A stretch of 64,000 nt of DNA from Candidatus Micrarchaeota archaeon (GTDB lineage Archaea > Micrarchaeota > Micrarchaeia > Anstonellales > Bilamarchaeaceae), in NCBI GenBank assembly GCA_030648615.1, contig JAUSHJ010000040.1, positions 6,769 through 70,768 on the forward strand, given 5' to 3'. The stretch's first letter is position 1. Every line of letters begins with the position of its first letter. Positions 10,467 to 52,687 of the stretch are shown piece after piece. The notes beneath the pieces were generated by a model. The model was not told the DNA's origin, did no database searches, and worked only from the letters and a program-made list of their open reading frames with translations. A program made the position numbers and the translations under genes.

Positions 10467-10542
10467 TATACAGAACCAGTGTCACGACAATTCGTGACAC
10501 TATTTGTCAACAATGTTGACAAACCAAAGTTGGTTCTGTATA
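10467..10542. repeat. hairpin (tatacagaacca/tggttctgtata) interrupted by a 48-bp two-hairpin module
   Basis: Inner gtgtcacga..tcgtgacac and tttgtcaaca..tgttgacaaa; AACCA duplicated at 10474 and 10522. Confidence 0.85.
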
Positions 10543-15780: not shown

Positions 15781-17111
15781 TGAATTATATACCTATCACT
15801 GATCAAGACGAGAAAGACATGCTCGCATTGCTCGGGTTAAAAAATATAGAGGAATTGTTTACACATGTTCCAGCTAAGCTTAATCGTGACCTTGCACTCG
15901 GAGAGCCTCTAAGTGAACTTGAATTAAAGAAACATTTGCAGGAATTAAGTGAAAAGAATAACGTACTGAAATACTTTAGAGGTGCAGGAAGTTATTTGCA
16001 TTACGTTCCCAGTGCAATTAATCATCTTATTTTACGTGGTGAGTTTTTTACTGCATATACTCCATATCAGCCAGAAGTAAGTCAAGGTACTTTACAGGCA
16101 ATATACGAATTCCAAACGTTAATTTGTGCACTGACTGGTATGGATGTTGCAAATGCAAGTATGTATGATGTTGCTACAGCAGCAGCTGAATCTATGCTAT
16201 TAGCAAGAAGTGAAAATGAACGGAACGAAGTAGTCATTGCCAATCCATTAAATCCACAATATTTAGAAGTGTTGAAGACTTATGCTGCAAGTTGTGGATT
16301 TGTTTTACATGAGGGTATAAGCAAATTAACCGACAAGACTAGTTGTGTTATTGTTCAACAGCCAAGTTATCACGGATCTATAGAAGATTTAAAACAATTT
16401 TCAGACAAAATACATGAAAAAGGAGCAATGCTTGCAGTAATTATTACTGATCCTACTTCTCTTGCAATTATCGAACCTCCTGGGAGTTTTGGTGCAGATA
16501 TTGTTGTTGGGGACTTACAATGCTTTGGTAATGGGTTAAATTTTGGCGGACCGTCTGGGGGGTTTATGGCTGTAAAAAAACAGTTCATAAAGAAAATTCC
16601 AGGAAGACTTTGTGGAATGACAAATGACGATAAGGGAAATACAGGTTTCATACTTACTTTACAAGCAAGAGAGCAGCATATCAGACGTGAAAAAGCTACA
16701 AGTAACATTTGTACTAATCAGGCATTGAATGCACTTGCTTCTACTATTTATCTTTCACTTCTTGGTAAAACTGGTTTGAGAAATGTTGCTATGAAAAGTT
16801 ATCATAATGCGCACAAGTTACAAAAGTTGCTAGAGGTTAGCGGGTTTAAGCTAGTTGATGGTAGCAAACCATTGTCAGCGGGGCAAAAAAACGCTGACAA
16901 CATTTGTCACGAAACTCGTGACAAATCATTTTACAATGAATTTTTAGTTGAGACTCCAGTTCCAGTTAAAAATCTAAACGCAAAACTTCAAGACCACGGA
17001 TTTTTAGGTGGAGTAGAAGTTGCAGAAAACAAATGGTTGCTCTGTTGCACGGAAATGTTGGATGACAAGGATATTGAAAAATTTGTTGAGACCGTTAAGA
17101 GTGTGAAATAA
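15780..17111 (+). CDS. gcvPA: glycine dehydrogenase subunit 1
   Basis: TAYTPYQPEVSQG, NASMYD, REQHIRREKATSNICTNQ. Confidence 0.97.
   Translation: MNYIPITDQDEKDMLALLGLKNIEELFTHVPAKLNRDLALGEPLSELELKKHLQELSEKNNVLKYFRGAGSYLHYVPSAINHLILRGEFFTAYTPYQPEVSQGTLQAIYEFQTLICALTGMDVANASMYDVATAAAESMLLARSENERNEVVIANPLNPQYLEVLKTYAASCGFVLHEGISKLTDKTSCVIVQQPSYHGSIEDLKQFSDKIHEKGAMLAVIITDPTSLAIIEPPGSFGADIVVGDLQCFGNGLNFGGPSGGFMAVKKQFIKKIPGRLCGMTNDDKGNTGFILTLQAREQHIRREKATSNICTNQALNALASTIYLSLLGKTGLRNVAMKSYHNAHKLQKLLEVSGFKLVDGSKPLSAGQKNADNICHETRDKSFYNEFLVETPVPVKNLNAKLQDHGFLGGVEVAENKWLLCCTEMLDDKDIEKFVETVKSVK
16865..16930. repeat. 57-bp in-frame two-hairpin insertion inside gcvPA
   Basis: ttgtcagcg..cgctgacaa plus tttgtcacga..tcgtgacaaa between caaaccatt and caaatcatt direct repeats. 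Confidence 0.8.
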
Positions 17112-20084: not shown

Positions 20085-20195
20085 TTCTACTGTAAATTCT
20101 ATCGATGTTAAAGAATTCTTCTTTAATAGTTGTAACTTGCAAAGCAATTTACTCGAATTTACAACAAGACAAATTCCTTTTCAATTTGTCTTTTC
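20085..20195. repeat. two-hairpin dispersed repeat (copy 1, with extra hairpins in its loop)
   Basis: ttctactgtaaatt...aatttacaacaagacaaatt..aatttgtcttttc, shared with 34835 and 35550. Confidence 0.8.
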
Positions 20196-34834: not shown

Positions 34835-34895
34835 TTCTACTGTAAATTTTATTTAATTTACAACAGGACAAATTAATTTTGTAATTTGTCTTTTC
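34835..34895. repeat. two-hairpin dispersed repeat (copy 2)
   Basis: ttctactgtaaatt..aatttacaacaggacaaatt..aatttgtcttttc. Confidence 0.8.
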
Positions 34896-35549: not shown

Positions 35550-35604
35550 TACTATAAATTCTATTGAATTTACAACAGAACAAATCTCTTGTCGATTTGT
35601 TCTT
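35550..35604. repeat. two-hairpin dispersed repeat (copy 3)
   Basis: tactataaattctattgaatttacaacagaacaaatc..gatttgttct. Confidence 0.75.
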
Positions 35605-44597: not shown

Positions 44598-44984
44598 TTA
44601 TTTGCAGTAAGGAATAATTTTTTCATCAAATAATGACAAATCTCCTACAACTTTAAAAGTAATTTTTACGTTTTTCTTTAATGGATCTTCCTTTAAACCA
44701 TCTAAAGCTATTTTTTGTCCATTTATTGCAAAATCAGAATTAGTAGCCATTGTCACTTTTTTACCATCTTTTTCAGTGATTATAATCCTATTGCTATGAT
44801 TATCTTTGCAAATATCTTCTGATAACAATTCTTGCAATGCGGCTTTCCTTGCTGGTCTTAATTGCTCGGCTTCTATCTTTGCATTTGTGAATTCTCTATT
44901 CAATTTTATGGATCCCCAGACAATTCCAATGGTACATAGGGCGCTTATTCCGATTACAATTTTTTGTTTTGTAGTTATTGCCAT
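44598..44984 (-). CDS. hypothetical membrane-anchored protein
   Basis: N-terminal TM segment; GGTGA RBS. Confidence 0.65.
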   Translation of the reverse strand: MAITTKQKIVIGISALCTIGIVWGSIKLNREFTNAKIEAEQLRPARKAALQELLSEDICKDNHSNRIIITEKDGKKVTMATNSDFAINGQKIALDGLKEDPLKKNVKITFKVVGDLSLFDEKIIPYCK

Positions 44985-45059
44985 AAATTCACCTTAATAA
45001 TATTAATATTTAAATCTATATATTTCACCAGTTTATGTCTGGTGGTTTTTGACATATTT

Positions 45060-45322
45060 TCATGTGTCAATTCGGCACGGAAACTCATGGTTTGACGCGT
45101 AACGCCGCGTCAAATATTGACACGATACGTCGTGTCAATGGATTGTCAATACTTTGTTGACAAATAGTGTCACGAATTGTCGTGACACTGGTTTTAACCT
45201 TGGGAGGAAGTGCCGAATTTACACAACTTTGCCCTCCCAATTGTTCGACGCTTCGAACAATGGGCATATTGTTGCTTATAGCAACAATCTTGTAGGCTGT
45301 GGTGGCCGAATGGGCAAATCAT
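45060..45322. mobile_element. MITE/PATE-like dispersed element, copy carrying hairpin-module insertions
   Basis: Colinear with 51745-51874 plus a 101-bp four-hairpin insert between TGGTTT repeats and a two-hairpin replacement. Confidence 0.75.
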
Positions 45323-45327
45323 CTAGA

Positions 45328-45771
45328 TTATTGCGTTTCCAAAAGTCGGACAAAATTTATTCCATCTGGGATGTAACACGATCTGAAAACACCACCTTTA
45401 TAAGAATAAACAAGAGCTGAACCTCTTGCCCAGTCATACATCAATTTCTCGTACATTTCTGCCTGTTGAGGGTCTACCCTTACAAATACATTTGTTCCAG
45501 AACCATTCCATGTAAGTGGAACTATATTTCCATCAGCAATAGCTCCATATATTTTCAATGGAAGTGGCCCTCTTTGCACAGAAAAACTTACACAATCTGC
45601 CAAGGGTGCGGGTAATTTCGGATGATCATTTATTATTGCCCGTATGCCTTTTTTAACCTCTAGAACTATCGGGCCTTCCAGCATTGTAGGAGTTGCACGC
45701 ATTTCTTTTGGCACATGCCTTTCTGCTGCTCTCATTGCTACTATTGTTGGTTTGTGATCATGAAGCTTCAT
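45328..45771 (-). CDS. hypothetical protein
   Basis: 147-aa ORF. Confidence 0.55.
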   Translation of the reverse strand: MKLHDHKPTIVAMRAAERHVPKEMRATPTMLEGPIVLEVKKGIRAIINDHPKLPAPLADCVSFSVQRGPLPLKIYGAIADGNIVPLTWNGSGTNVFVRVDPQQAEMYEKLMYDWARGSALVYSYKGGVFRSCYIPDGINFVRLLETQ

Positions 45772-49729: not shown

Positions 49730-51717
49730 TAAAAAACTTTAAGACAACAGAAGAAATAGACGTACCAAAAAAGCTCATAGATCAGATAATAGGTCAGGAA
49801 AAAGCAGCAGACATAGTGAAGAAAGCTTCACAACAAAAGCGTAATGTTTTGTTGATCGGTCCTCCTGGTACTGGTAAGAGTATGCTTGCCCAGGCCATGG
49901 CAGAATTGATGCCAATAGAAGAGTTGGAAGATGTTTTAGCTTATCCGAATCCACATAATGAAAATCAGCCAATGGTACGTATAGTAAAAACATATCCTAG
50001 TTATAATGAAATAATAAAAAATCAGGAATTTTTAAGGTATTATAGTCCACAGGAAATAGCACTGATAAAAAAATTAGGTGATGAGAAGCGGACAGGTGAA
50101 TTTCCAAAAGTTCTCAAAACTGGTTTAGGGAGGAGAATTGCCAATTATAAAAAACTCGAGGATAACGTTGCGTCAATTTCTCCACTTGCAATAATCTCCA
50201 TACTCGGTCTTATTTTACTTGGTGTAATTTTCTTTGCTCCTATCTCAGAAAATATAAAATGGTTTATTCTTGCAGCAGTGCTTGGATTAGGTTTTCTCTA
50301 TGTTATTTCAAATGCAACTGCGGGGCTTAGCAGGAGACTCACTCCATTTGAGCAACCGAATCCTAAATTAATTGTTGATAATACTGAGAAGTCAACTGCA
50401 CCATTTGTTGATGCCACCGGAAGTAAGGCAGGTGCTCTTCTCGGAGATTGTAAACACGATCCACTCCAGAGCGGAGGATTAGGTACTCCAGCTCATCTTC
50501 GTGTAGAATCAGGTGCAGTTCACCGTGCCAATAAAGGTGTATTATTCATAGATGAAATAGCTTCCTTGAAAATGAACTGGCAACAGGAGCTATTGACAGC
50601 AATGCAGGAGAAAAAATATCCAATTACTGGCCAGAGTGAAATGAGTTCAGGTGCATTGGTTAAAACTCAGGCAGTTCCTTCAGATTTTGTTTTAGTTGCT
50701 GCTGGGAATTTGCCAGATATGCAGCAGATACATCCCGCTCTTCGTTCTAGAATACGTGGTGGTGGCTACGAAATTTATGTTGAAGATAATATGGAAGATA
50801 GTCCTGAAAACGAAGAAAAGATTGTGCAGTTCGTAGCTCAGGAAGTTAAAAAAGATGGTAAGATTCCTCACTTTACTAGAGATGCAGTAGAAATGATGAT
50901 TGAAGAAGCTAGAAGAATGGCTGGTAGAAAGAATAAATTCACACTTAATCTAAGAGAACTCGGTGGTCTTGTAAGAGCTGCAGGAGATATTGCAAAGGAG
51001 AAGAAAGCGAAATACGTAGAACGTGAGCATGTTACTGCAGCTAAAAAGATATTCAATTCCATTGAAGCACAACTGGGAAGAAAAATGATTGAAGTTAAGC
51101 GAGAGTATCAAACTATCATGACTTCCGGTAGTGCTGTAGGCAGAGTAAATGGTCTTGCTGTTTTAGGGGAGAGTATGGCTGGTCTCGTATTACCTATAGT
51201 GGCAGAAGTAACTCCTGCTGCAAGCAAGAATGAAGGAAAAGTAATTGCTACAGGGAAACTTGGAACTATTGCGAAAGAGGCAGTAGATAACGTTTCTGCA
51301 ATAATCAAGAAATATATCGGCACAGATATTTCACAGAAGGATATCCATATTCAATTTTTACAGACATACGAAGGAGTTGAAGGAGATTCTGCAAGTATTT
51401 CCATTGCTGTTGCAGTCATTTCAGCAATGGCAGGAGCTCCGATAAAACAGGATTTAGGTATGACTGGTTCACTTGATGTTCGTGGCGGGGTTTTGCCTAT
51501 AGGCGGTGCAACTTCAAAGATTGAAGCTGCCATGGATAGCGGATTGAAACGAGTATTAATTCCTTTCAGTAATGCAGAAGATGTTTATATGAGCAAAGAT
51601 CGGAAAGGTAAGATCGAGATTATAAAAGTCAAGAATATTGTCGAAGTTTTGCAGAATGCGCTTGAGGATTGCAAGGAGAAAAAGGAATTAATTGCAAAGA
51701 TGAAAAGACAGGCTTAA
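49726..51717 (+). CDS. lonB: archaeal membrane-anchored Lon protease LonB (probable ATA start)
   Basis: N-terminal [21 protein letters not shown] lies upstream of the track start; GPPGTGKS, two TM segments, EGDSAS, K dyad. Confidence 0.95.
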
Positions 51718-51744
51718 CTAAGGTAATAAAATGTTGTTTAAAAC

Positions 51745-51874
51745 TCATGTGTCAATTCGGCATGGAAACTCATGGTTTTAACTTTGGGAGGAAGTGCCGA
51801 ATTTACACAACTTTGCCCTTCGGCCCTAATGAAACCACAGCCTTTAGGCTGTGGTGGCCGAATGGGCAAATCAT
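51745..51874. mobile_element. MITE/PATE-like dispersed element, uninterrupted copy
   Basis: tgtgtcaattcggca/tgccgaatttacaca and tttgccc-ttcggcc..accacagcct-tt-aggctgtggt-ggccgaa-tgggcaaa. Confidence 0.7.
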
Positions 51875-51916
51875 ATTATTTTTTTGTTATTTGATTCTAA
51901 AAAGGTTTTGGTCAGA

Positions 51917-52687
51917 TTACTCTAACGTCCATGGCGCTTCGCAATGTGTCCCATGTGAGTAGAGATAGAGTGTAGGTAAATTAGGCAACATCTCTTTGTA
52001 CTCTCGATCATTATAAGTAAACAATATTGCCTTACCACTAGTAATCCGATCCATTTCCTTTGCATCAAGTTTTCTCATCGTGTAATAAAGTAAAGCACCT
52101 TCTTCTTTGCTACCGCGTTTATACCATTTACCAGCTTGTCTGACTAATCTTTCTCTTAGCTGTGACTGTTCAAATTCTTCTCTAAATAAATATGCACTAT
52201 CTCTTACTAGTTTTACTTTTTCTTTTGCATTATCTAAAGTTGGGTTATCTAAATATAGCATATATGTGCCTGAGCCAAAGAAATAATATCGGTGTAGTAA
52301 CGTGTGATCGTATCTATTTATGTCTGCCCAATCCATTCCGTTTAAAACCGCATGGCTACTGGTTAAAATTACAGTAATCAAAAGTCCATCTTTATGAAAT
52401 TCTTTGACTCTCAAATTTATTTCTTCAAGCCTAAGCATCACATTCTTCTCTCTTTTATCAGGTTCTCTTGGTAAATGTGGATATCCCCAGTAGAGATAAA
52501 CTGGTATACGTGATGATGCTCCTGTACCATGATTAGTTATCCTAGTCTTAACTATCTCTTCTATTCCATTACGATCTTCTTGCAGCACTGGTTCTCTGTT
52601 AAATTTTCTTGAGCATAAAACATCTGTAACTTTTACCACTTTTCTTTTTACAAAATGTTCATTTATTTTTTTTAATATATTTCCCAT
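51917..52687 (-). CDS. hypothetical protein, distantly PvcA/Dit1 (isonitrile synthase)-like
   Basis: IPVYLYWG..PD..E...RL..I...V...H..G..I.VI pattern; weak. Confidence 0.4.
   Translation of the reverse strand: MGNILKKINEHFVKRKVVKVTDVLCSRKFNREPVLQEDRNGIEEIVKTRITNHGTGASSRIPVYLYWGYPHLPREPDKREKNVMLRLEEINLRVKEFHKDGLLITVILTSSHAVLNGMDWADINRYDHTLLHRYYFFGSGTYMLYLDNPTLDNAKEKVKLVRDSAYLFREEFEQSQLRERLVRQAGKWYKRGSKEEGALLYYTMRKLDAKEMDRITSGKAILFTYNDREYKEMLPNLPTLYLYSHGTHCEAPWTLE

Follow-up and report, generated by a model that had tools for sequence, protein, structure and literature searches.

The composite repeat at positions 45060-45322 is best explained as a nest of miniature, non-coding mobile elements, in which small modules, each built of two hairpins, were pasted into a larger folded repeat of 130 nt, here termed the E element; the probability of this reading, together with the mode of movement proposed below, is put at roughly 0.65. 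The window, i.e. the whole stretch of 64,000 nucleotides that was analyzed, corresponds to positions 6769-70768 of contig C65 in the assembly G000 of a Candidatus Micrarchaeota archaeon (GCA_030648615.1, JAUSHJ010000040.1), which comprises 1.65 Mb in 76 contigs with 36% G+C, is about 90% complete, and includes a full-length SSU rRNA of the archaeal type. Filled and empty versions of a site were sought by self-BLAST of this assembly, as collinear matches in which just one of the two sequences is gapped; outgroups were drawn from a collection of relatives that contains no genome of the same genus, and public-run data were consulted as assembled Logan contigs of 4 runs. The coordinates of the features in the window are compiled in Table 1.

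Table 1. Features of the window that bear on the composite repeat (coordinates refer to the window; a point in the strand column stands for no assigned strand)
Feature	Coordinates	Strand	Basis or remark
Composite or 'filled' E copy (backbone 130 nt), bounded by TCAT	45060..45322	+	BLAST; per-copy map
E backbone positions 1-34: left arm of left hairpin and start of apical loop	45060..45093	+	97% over 34 nt; fold
101-nt insert, two tandem class-B hairpin pairs	45094..45194	.	filled/empty comparison, overlap 6
First class-B pair, hairpins 45091-45114 and 45116-45139	45091..45139	.	hairpin list
Second class-B pair, hairpins 45143-45163 and 45166-45189	45143..45189	.	hairpin list
E backbone positions 35-75	45195..45235	+	98% over 47 nt including the overlap
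Class-1 hairpin pair (CCCAATTG..CAATGGG and second hairpin), 57 nt	45236..45292	+	replaces backbone 76-100
E backbone positions 101-130	45293..45322	+	100% over 30 nt
'Empty' E element (130 nt), flanked by two convergent gene ends	51745..51874	+	BLAST; reference copy
Class-B pair (44 nt) and repeated ACCA, 48 nt	10479..10526	+	3' of AGAACCA, loop edge of host hairpin
Host ORF, 443 aa	15780..17111	+	open reading frame
57-nt class-B hairpin pair, in frame	16872..16928	+	3' of AAACCA in gcvPA-like gene

The empty reference copy folds as two long hairpins (z = -8.3) and is matched by the composite in three BLAST blocks of 97-100% identity (E-values 1e-9 to 1e-16), in which 45060-45093, 45189-45235 and 45293-45322 correspond to positions 1-34, 29-75 and 101-130 of 51745-51874, with 2 mismatches over the whole backbone. 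These blocks served as the alignment of the long and the short copy, MAFFT in pairwise mode having placed the left arm wrongly, and the length of the composite is accounted for as 130 + 101 + 32 = 263 nt. The first-pass annotation had described a gain of 101 nt with four hairpins, flanked by TGGTTT at 45088 and 45189, and the replacement of the arm beginning tcggcc.. by two more 'modules'; BLAST blocks and hairpin list bear out both statements, the replacement consisting of 57 nt with two hairpins in place of backbone positions 76-100 (25 nt, tcggcc..cagcctt). Owing to the repeated TGGTTT, the boundary of the 101-nt insert can slide by 6 nt, and its four hairpins are all perfect (Table 1). The same insert is found at C70:19902-19998, its first pair alone occupies the same E site at C53:26009-26057 (51 nt, flanked by ATGGTTT), and its second pair recurs in reverse orientation as the insert at window position 10479-10522 (93% over 55 nt). 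The 57-for-25 replacement has the 75/76 site as its left boundary and the 100/101 site as its right one, both of which take simple insertions in other copies. Folded as single-stranded DNA, the composite reaches -75.7 kcal/mol (z = -11.6; none of 200 shuffles folded as well), with both outer stems of the host intact and all of the added hairpins in the stem tops. The composite had no match in plasmid and phage collections.

The E element was found at 23 loci by BLAST and alignment survey; the repeat breaks the assembly, as eight of these loci are located at contig ends. Eight complete, clean copies of 130 nt and three clean partial copies at contig ends differ by 0-2 mismatches, and the remainder carry insertions or deletions, the backbones showing 0-6 mismatches to the reference. 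Wherever the ends are intact, TCAT stands at both of them amid differing flanks, the exception being a degenerate 70-nt version on C54 that starts with TTAT; the two ends share only ATTTG/CAAAT-like letters. In a public run from another study (X2), a 151-nt contig skips 45060-45318 and joins 45059 to 45319 with a single TCAT and 4 ambiguous letters; this is one record with a depth of 2. A relative thus possesses the same intergenic spacer devoid of the E element, in agreement with insertion of the element at TCAT. G028 and G013, which represent other genera within the family, contain homologues (8 and 2 matches, respectively), and two further genomes (G031 and G004) gave single short matches of 35 and 25 nt. 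The G028 and G013 homologues form two long imperfect hairpins with conserved unpaired CGGAAAC and GGAGGA and with TCAT at both ends, and compensatory changes affect 18 of the 47 predicted pairs among five copies from three genera. A search against Rfam 15 returned no match in the window at the gathering score, none at E<=1 for 44950-45450, and sub-threshold chance hits only for 51650-51950; the right end of the E element had no exact match in viral contigs.

Two side observations concern the build of the E element itself. Minimal versions of 70-80 nt exist at C22:6931-7010 and C54:30128-30200, reduced to both outer hairpins with TCAT at the ends (in C54, TTAT at the left end), so that the E element is itself a two-hairpin unit. 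Among the G028 copies, the right hairpin (about 56 nt, TTTGAACG..CGTTCAAA) is present in opposite orientations, as seen for L003:1445-1570 versus L017:1493-1618 and L013, which indicates that the long hairpins flip too.

Alignment of the genomic copies, proposed earlier as a check, places hairpin pairs at recurrent sites of the E backbone. After position 75, seven copies contain 51 nt and the C53 copy contains 105 nt; after about position 15, three copies contain 54 nt; at about positions 28-34, the C53 copy carries 51 nt, and C70 and the window copy carry 101 nt; and further inserts of the C70 copy follow position 68 (51 nt) and position 100 (54 nt). For the pair at about 15 and the second pair at 34, all four combinations of presence and absence are realized among the window copy, C70, C53 and the clean copies, so that recombination between copies, precise excision or repeated insertion has to be invoked. 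This conflict is one of the arguments for regarding the composite as a product of recombination or gene conversion among E copies, or of chimeric assembly, with no module insertion at all; further points in its favor are the number of loci at contig ends and the public data, in which none of the listed Logan contig pieces from the likely source run spans an inner junction of 45060-45322. This explanation is nevertheless judged very unlikely, given that modules reside in unique contexts that offer no repeat as a partner, namely the gcvPA-like gene, the hairpin at 10479, and IS200 leaders in other genera that are empty at this place in G000, and that three independent contigs (C53, C65 and C70) share the 51/101-nt site in contig-internal copies that are mutually consistent. 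The Logan contigs of the 4 runs, of which the likely source run breaks at repeats, revealed in the parts that they cover neither polymorphism at the level of modules nor a circular junction.

The direction of change was settled by outgroups. Had the long forms been ancestral, as was considered at the outset, outgroup copies should have displayed them; the result came out opposite, outgroup E copies being short at the sites concerned. In G028, the left halves of all four alignable copies (L003, L011, L013 and L015) are uninterrupted at the 101-nt site, and copy L008 of G028 as well as copy L004 of G013 are uninterrupted at 75/76 and 100/101. In addition, nine of the 14 unique filled/empty junctions from the first self-BLAST scan are free of any flanking repeat or shared letters, so that slippage deletion could not have produced the short form precisely. 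Short outgroup copies and mostly repeat-free junctions point to insertion, not deletion, as the source of the length differences. That the 130-nt form arose from ancestral long forms by deletion of palindromes between short direct repeats is therefore highly improbable. It could draw on the TGGTTT flanks of the 101-nt block, which slippage could excise precisely, and on at least one E copy with a deletion between AATGGGCA repeats; besides the outgroups and the junctions, it is contradicted by the eight complete and three partial clean copies, which are near-identical to one another whereas the filled copies each differ, and by the 105-nt block, which is an intact 54-nt pair within a 51-nt pair that is uninterrupted in seven other copies. 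Deletions do occur as well: two single inner hairpins of 22 and 28 nt, present in the outgroups, are missing from the 80-nt variant on C22, and in the E copy at C55:13602-13650 the first hairpin of a class-1 module passes straight into the last 12 nt of the element, the DNA between two AATGGGCA repeats having been lost in what looks like a deletion. The earlier proposition that the modules are mobile is supported in this sense, with insertion as the direction of change, and they may still be moving at present.

The unit of gain is evident from the sizes of the inserts. Self-BLAST of the assembly yielded 14 unique filled/empty events, and a more sensitive run 34 rows; the inserts of the two scans measure 51, 51, 53, 54, 54 and 54 nt as well as 101, 105, 106, 109 and 114 nt, and those of the relatives (G028 and G013) 45, 48 and 61 nt. 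All 18 events in G000 and five in G028 and G013 that were read by hand consist of one complete hairpin pair (45-61 nt) or of nested or tandem pairs. The rows of the sensitive run that are not pairs comprise 15 differences of 22 or 28 nt relative to C22, two composite rows (123 and 61 nt), and one of 243 nt on C7 that is unrelated to hairpins. Arrays of at least two hairpins number 162 in the assembly compared with 11 in a shuffled genome, with 115, 25, 12, 3, 4 and 3 arrays of two, three, four, five, six and seven hairpins, respectively, versus 10, 1 and 0 after shuffling; odd-sized arrays may result from the detection threshold or from decay. The unit gained is the hairpin pair, and hairpin number changes in steps of two. 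The unit number varies, as the first-pass annotation had proposed, by pairs: the 101 nt of the window copy are two successive pairs, of which C53 preserves the one-pair state. According to the folds, the inserts sit within loops, with the outer stems of the host intact.

Arrays and nesting are also met outside the E element. Another pair type (TGTAAATTC.. and AGGACAAATT..) at window position 20106-20194 holds a nested 51-nt pair in the loop of its first hairpin, with a 4-nt overlap of TCGA; it is unfilled at window positions 34841-34892 and 35553-35603 and at C70:40578, and the same filled state is present at C41:30421. An identical array of six to seven hairpins is located at four contig ends, on C24, C29, C70 (55837-55942) and C71 (6-199); the assembly has probably collapsed such long arrays or failed to resolve them.

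The modules fall into classes, each with its own target. Class B comprises the modules at 45094, 10479 and 16872, whose hairpin feet read TTTGAC, ATTGAC, TTGTCA or GTGTCA and whose own 3' ends read CAAACCA, CAAATCA, CAATCCA or CAATTCA. The motif ACCA (TGGT on the other strand) stands immediately 5' of the module in all six insertions, which are distributed over five sites: the E loop, used twice, window positions 10479 (AGAACCA) and 16872 (CAAACCA), and sites on C44 and C69 (GGACCA in both), where the same position at the center of another pair type was hit. The flanking repeat is variable, from 3 to 7 nt, which fits a fixed motif on one flank combined with a similar element end better than it fits a staggered cut. 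Since the insert leaves ACCA in place on its 5' side, the site stays open to a second pair, which explains tandem growth. For the insert at 10479, no strictly empty copy of the host hairpin was present in G000, so that insertion is deduced from the flanking repeat and from the restoration of the host hairpin upon removal of the insert. The claimed specificity for TGGTT/AACCA thus holds and extends further, with ACCA in six of six cases including two on other contigs. Of the three insertions originally listed with 101, 48 and 57 bp, all are upheld; the 101 nt have to be counted as two units, and the insert listed at 16865 has AAACCA on its left flank only.

The latter insert lies in a 443-aa open reading frame, which we take to be a glycine-cleavage P-protein subunit 1-like gene (gcvPA). 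It amounts to exactly 19 codons at a codon boundary, its own right end being CAAATCA. Orthologues were found in three of 25 relatives (G001, G003 and G046), and all three lack the 19-20 residues, with the flanking motifs aligning on either side. A metagenome scan with gcvPA gave a best relative of 72% protein identity and no strain-level relative by which the exact boundaries of the insert could be fixed. Such modules can lengthen a conserved enzyme by 19 residues with no disruption of it. Altogether, 37 of the 162 arrays fall within open frames of at least 150 aa, many of them probably spurious, and gcvPA is the only verified coding case. As a separate observation, the hairpin pairs at C48:3523-3572 and C56:88457-88506 are each placed in frame close to the beginning of an open frame, and the N-termini of the two frames resemble pilin-type signal peptides of archaea, with ..LRGQAA.. 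encoded twice around the pair in the putative upstream translation.

In class-1 modules the first hairpin, CCCNATTG..CAATGGG, has a bulge of one base, and a mismatch is conserved in the second. In all nine filled/empty or replacement events a T is found 5' of the module, in six of the nine also 3' of it, and no duplication is seen; genome-wide, T precedes 24 of the 26 strict matches to the class-1 motif. Several of the sites are centers of small loops, such as GCCCT^TCGG, GCCTT^TAGG and GTCCT^TTGG, and T^T by itself is much too frequent to specify a site. Among the 26 copies, 13 different sequences make up the inner stem of the first hairpin, and at least three consecutive pairs are kept in 24 of the 26, compared with 2% in shuffles. 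The motif is present in 16 of 61 related genomes, all of a single family (15 of 36 from this family, 0 of 24 from eleven other families), a reversed-pattern control giving 0 in all genomes; in the genome collection at large the pattern has at least 120 single matches in unrelated bacteria, apparently by chance. Modules in tandem-gene contexts are oriented eight times in the same sense as the neighboring genes and nine times in the opposite sense, i.e. with no bias, on crude gene calls. In G013, G019 and G031, class-1 modules ride in the IS200 leader as passengers, and the same place is empty in G000.

The junctions also bear on the possibility that the hairpin blocks were copied by template switching during replication, or by microhomology-mediated repair, between similar feet, with no dedicated element or enzyme. 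Several junctions share 3-7 nt (TGG, ACCA, ATGG, TCGA, TGGTTT, ATGGTTT), nearly all of the 245 perfect hairpins, which represent 104 different stems, have TTG...CAA feet, and no transposase correlates with the modules, all of which speak for such copying. The end points of the inserts, however, coincide with complete pairs in every event that was read, the 9/14 junctions devoid of shared letters offer no microhomology, and ACCA precedes all class-B insertions in unrelated contexts, coding sequence included. On balance, template switching is considered unlikely.

The search for a mobilizer centered on Y1 transposases. The only gene of the IS200-type Y1 tnpA kind in G000 (C47:14323-14805, corresponding to L001:1447-1929; 160 aa) lies at a contig end and is flanked by GC-rich hairpins unlike the module ends; TnpB was not found in this assembly of about 90% completeness. 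A Y1 match was obtained in six of the 16 genomes with the class-1 motif and in 13 of the 45 without it, counted on incomplete assemblies, and the class-B signature occurs in four genomes, two of which have Y1. All four genomes with E homologues possess a Y1 match, a coincidence that covers three genera only and includes one homologue of just 25 nt. The Y1 transposase was thus discarded as a candidate: there is no sequence resemblance to the module ends, and its phyletic distribution tracks neither class 1 nor class B. A second copy of the IS200 left-end region at C44:45942-46080 bears a nested insert of 109 nt, a pair within a pair, at a place that is empty on C47.

The preferred reading, a nest of mobile hairpin pairs, can be outlined as follows. 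The host E element, with its two long imperfect hairpins, would have inserted at a TCAT, and itself ends in TCAT; the apical loop of its left hairpin would then have received two class-B pairs in succession, at one and the same ACCA/TGGT, and its right hairpin one class-1 pair at a T^T, the 25 nt between this and the next T^T being lost. Each module would be a defined unit of DNA with two imperfect hairpins as its ends, presumably moved in trans as folded single-stranded DNA and pasted 3' of a short motif that is exposed in the loops or junctions of other folded repeats. With the target motif kept on the 5' side, the site could be hit again, and arrays would grow by two hairpins per step. By analogy, this scheme resembles the 'peel and paste' of IS200/IS605 and the behavior of REP doublets.

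A related proposal shifts the intermediate from DNA to RNA, with reverse transcription, or reverse splicing into transcripts, as the means of spread. Such a route has reportedly been suggested for the SDR elements of cyanobacteria, and it would agree with the conservation of structure rather than sequence. It is regarded as quite unlikely here, in view of the even orientation of modules relative to neighboring genes (8 versus 9), of junctions at which neither poly-A or other retro-element signatures nor a bulge-helix-bulge geometry was seen by eye, and of public runs among which none of RNA contains the region.

More far-reaching, and doubtful at present, is the idea that the modules form an undescribed 'orphan' family of single-strand mini-transposons, with several classes of pairs of about 50 nt, each with its own target, and with machinery other than the Y1 enzymes of IS200 or RAYT type. 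Its classes would read ACCA, TCAT or T^T in exposed loops, stack at regenerated targets, nest in one another and enter genes in frame, and the mobilizer could be an unrecognized host enzyme or one supplied from outside these reduced genomes. If this were true, the modules would rank among the smallest mobile units known in archaea and would provide a handle on the growth of non-coding DNA in DPANN genomes. As to significance, the locus shows that hairpin repeats in a reduced archaeal genome were gained by insertion, and the rules are explicit, with the pair as the unit, a target particular to each class, retention of that target leading to stepwise arrays, and landing in the loops of other folded repeats. 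These rules explain mosaic hairpin clusters in Micrarchaeota and supply oligonucleotide substrates for an enzyme search.

In the portions of the literature consulted on palindromic repeats of Micrarchaeota and on MITEs or hairpins of DPANN archaea, no description of such modules was found. The REP/REPIN sequences and BIMEs of bacteria are mobilized by RAYT Y1 transposases. Like these, the modules are short palindromic units in non-coding DNA that form mosaic arrays and lie inside larger palindromes and ORFs, and as in REP/REPIN the units are over-represented and the doublet is the unit (115 of 162 arrays are doublets, and the events are pairs or multiples thereof). Excerpts of the REP literature name the doublet, not the single hairpin, as the replicative unit (PMC3116915), place REP dimers within palindromic targets and within ORFs, and describe one end as marked by a conserved tetranucleotide, GTAG or CGTC (PMC3733652). 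No GTAG/CGTC tag exists in the modules, whose feet read TTG..CAA, ATTG..CAAT or CCCNATTG..CAATGGG. The two hairpins of a module differ in stem and fold separately, unlike the REPIN, in which two inverted copies make one long hairpin; no RAYT-like gene flanked by modules was seen, and no Y1 match was obtained in the incomplete assemblies of 10 among the 16 genomes that carry the class-1 motif. The archaeal host and the existence of several module classes, each with a short target of its own, are further differences from bacterial REP/REPIN.

Gene-less derivatives of IS200/IS605 are known as PATE-type MITEs. The modules share with IS200/IS605 the subterminal imperfect hairpins as ends, two hairpins in a module and two long imperfect ones in the E element, and class B (ACCA) and the E element (TCAT) adjoin a fixed tetranucleotide, with no target duplication. 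In IS200/IS605, as parts of the relevant reports describe, a fixed tetranucleotide target is kept on one flank without duplication (PMC5027513, PMC3201880), and IS608 inserts adjoining a tetranucleotide in single-stranded DNA (PMC5027513). Class-1 modules, on the other hand, have no tetranucleotide target but only T^T, the feet of the module hairpins abut the junctions directly, and the IS200 ends in G000, G013, G019, G028, G031 and G010 differ from the modules, unlike what derivatives would show. From classical MITEs of the DDE type the modules depart by the want of a target-site duplication of fixed length, with 0 nt in class 1 and a variable overlap of 3-7 nt in class B, and the E element departs by ends that have no terminal inverted repeats beyond the ATTTG/CAAAT-like letters.

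The SDR elements of heterocyst-forming cyanobacteria come close in several respects. Elhai and co-workers reportedly described them in 2008 as single units of 21-27 nt, one family of which is tied to the HIP1 octamer, and are said to have found them nested in themselves and in mini-transposons, with compensatory changes and with mobility deduced from filled and empty sites. The modules are likewise very small structured repeats that nest and display compensatory changes and filled/empty sites; they differ in being pairs of about 50 nt, in an archaeon, and of unrelated sequence. The 19-codon in-frame insert in the gcvPA-like gene, in turn, recalls the Rickettsia palindromic elements, for which a passage in PMC3733652 reports a palindromic repeat in frame in a conserved protein gene that is not destroyed; those elements are longer, bacterial and mostly coding insertions, as against the single verified coding insertion here. 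The anatomy thus works like that of IS200/IS605 or REPIN, membership in those families is not supported, and the modules are an archaeal variant of REP/REPIN/SDR-like miniature palindromic mobile DNA.
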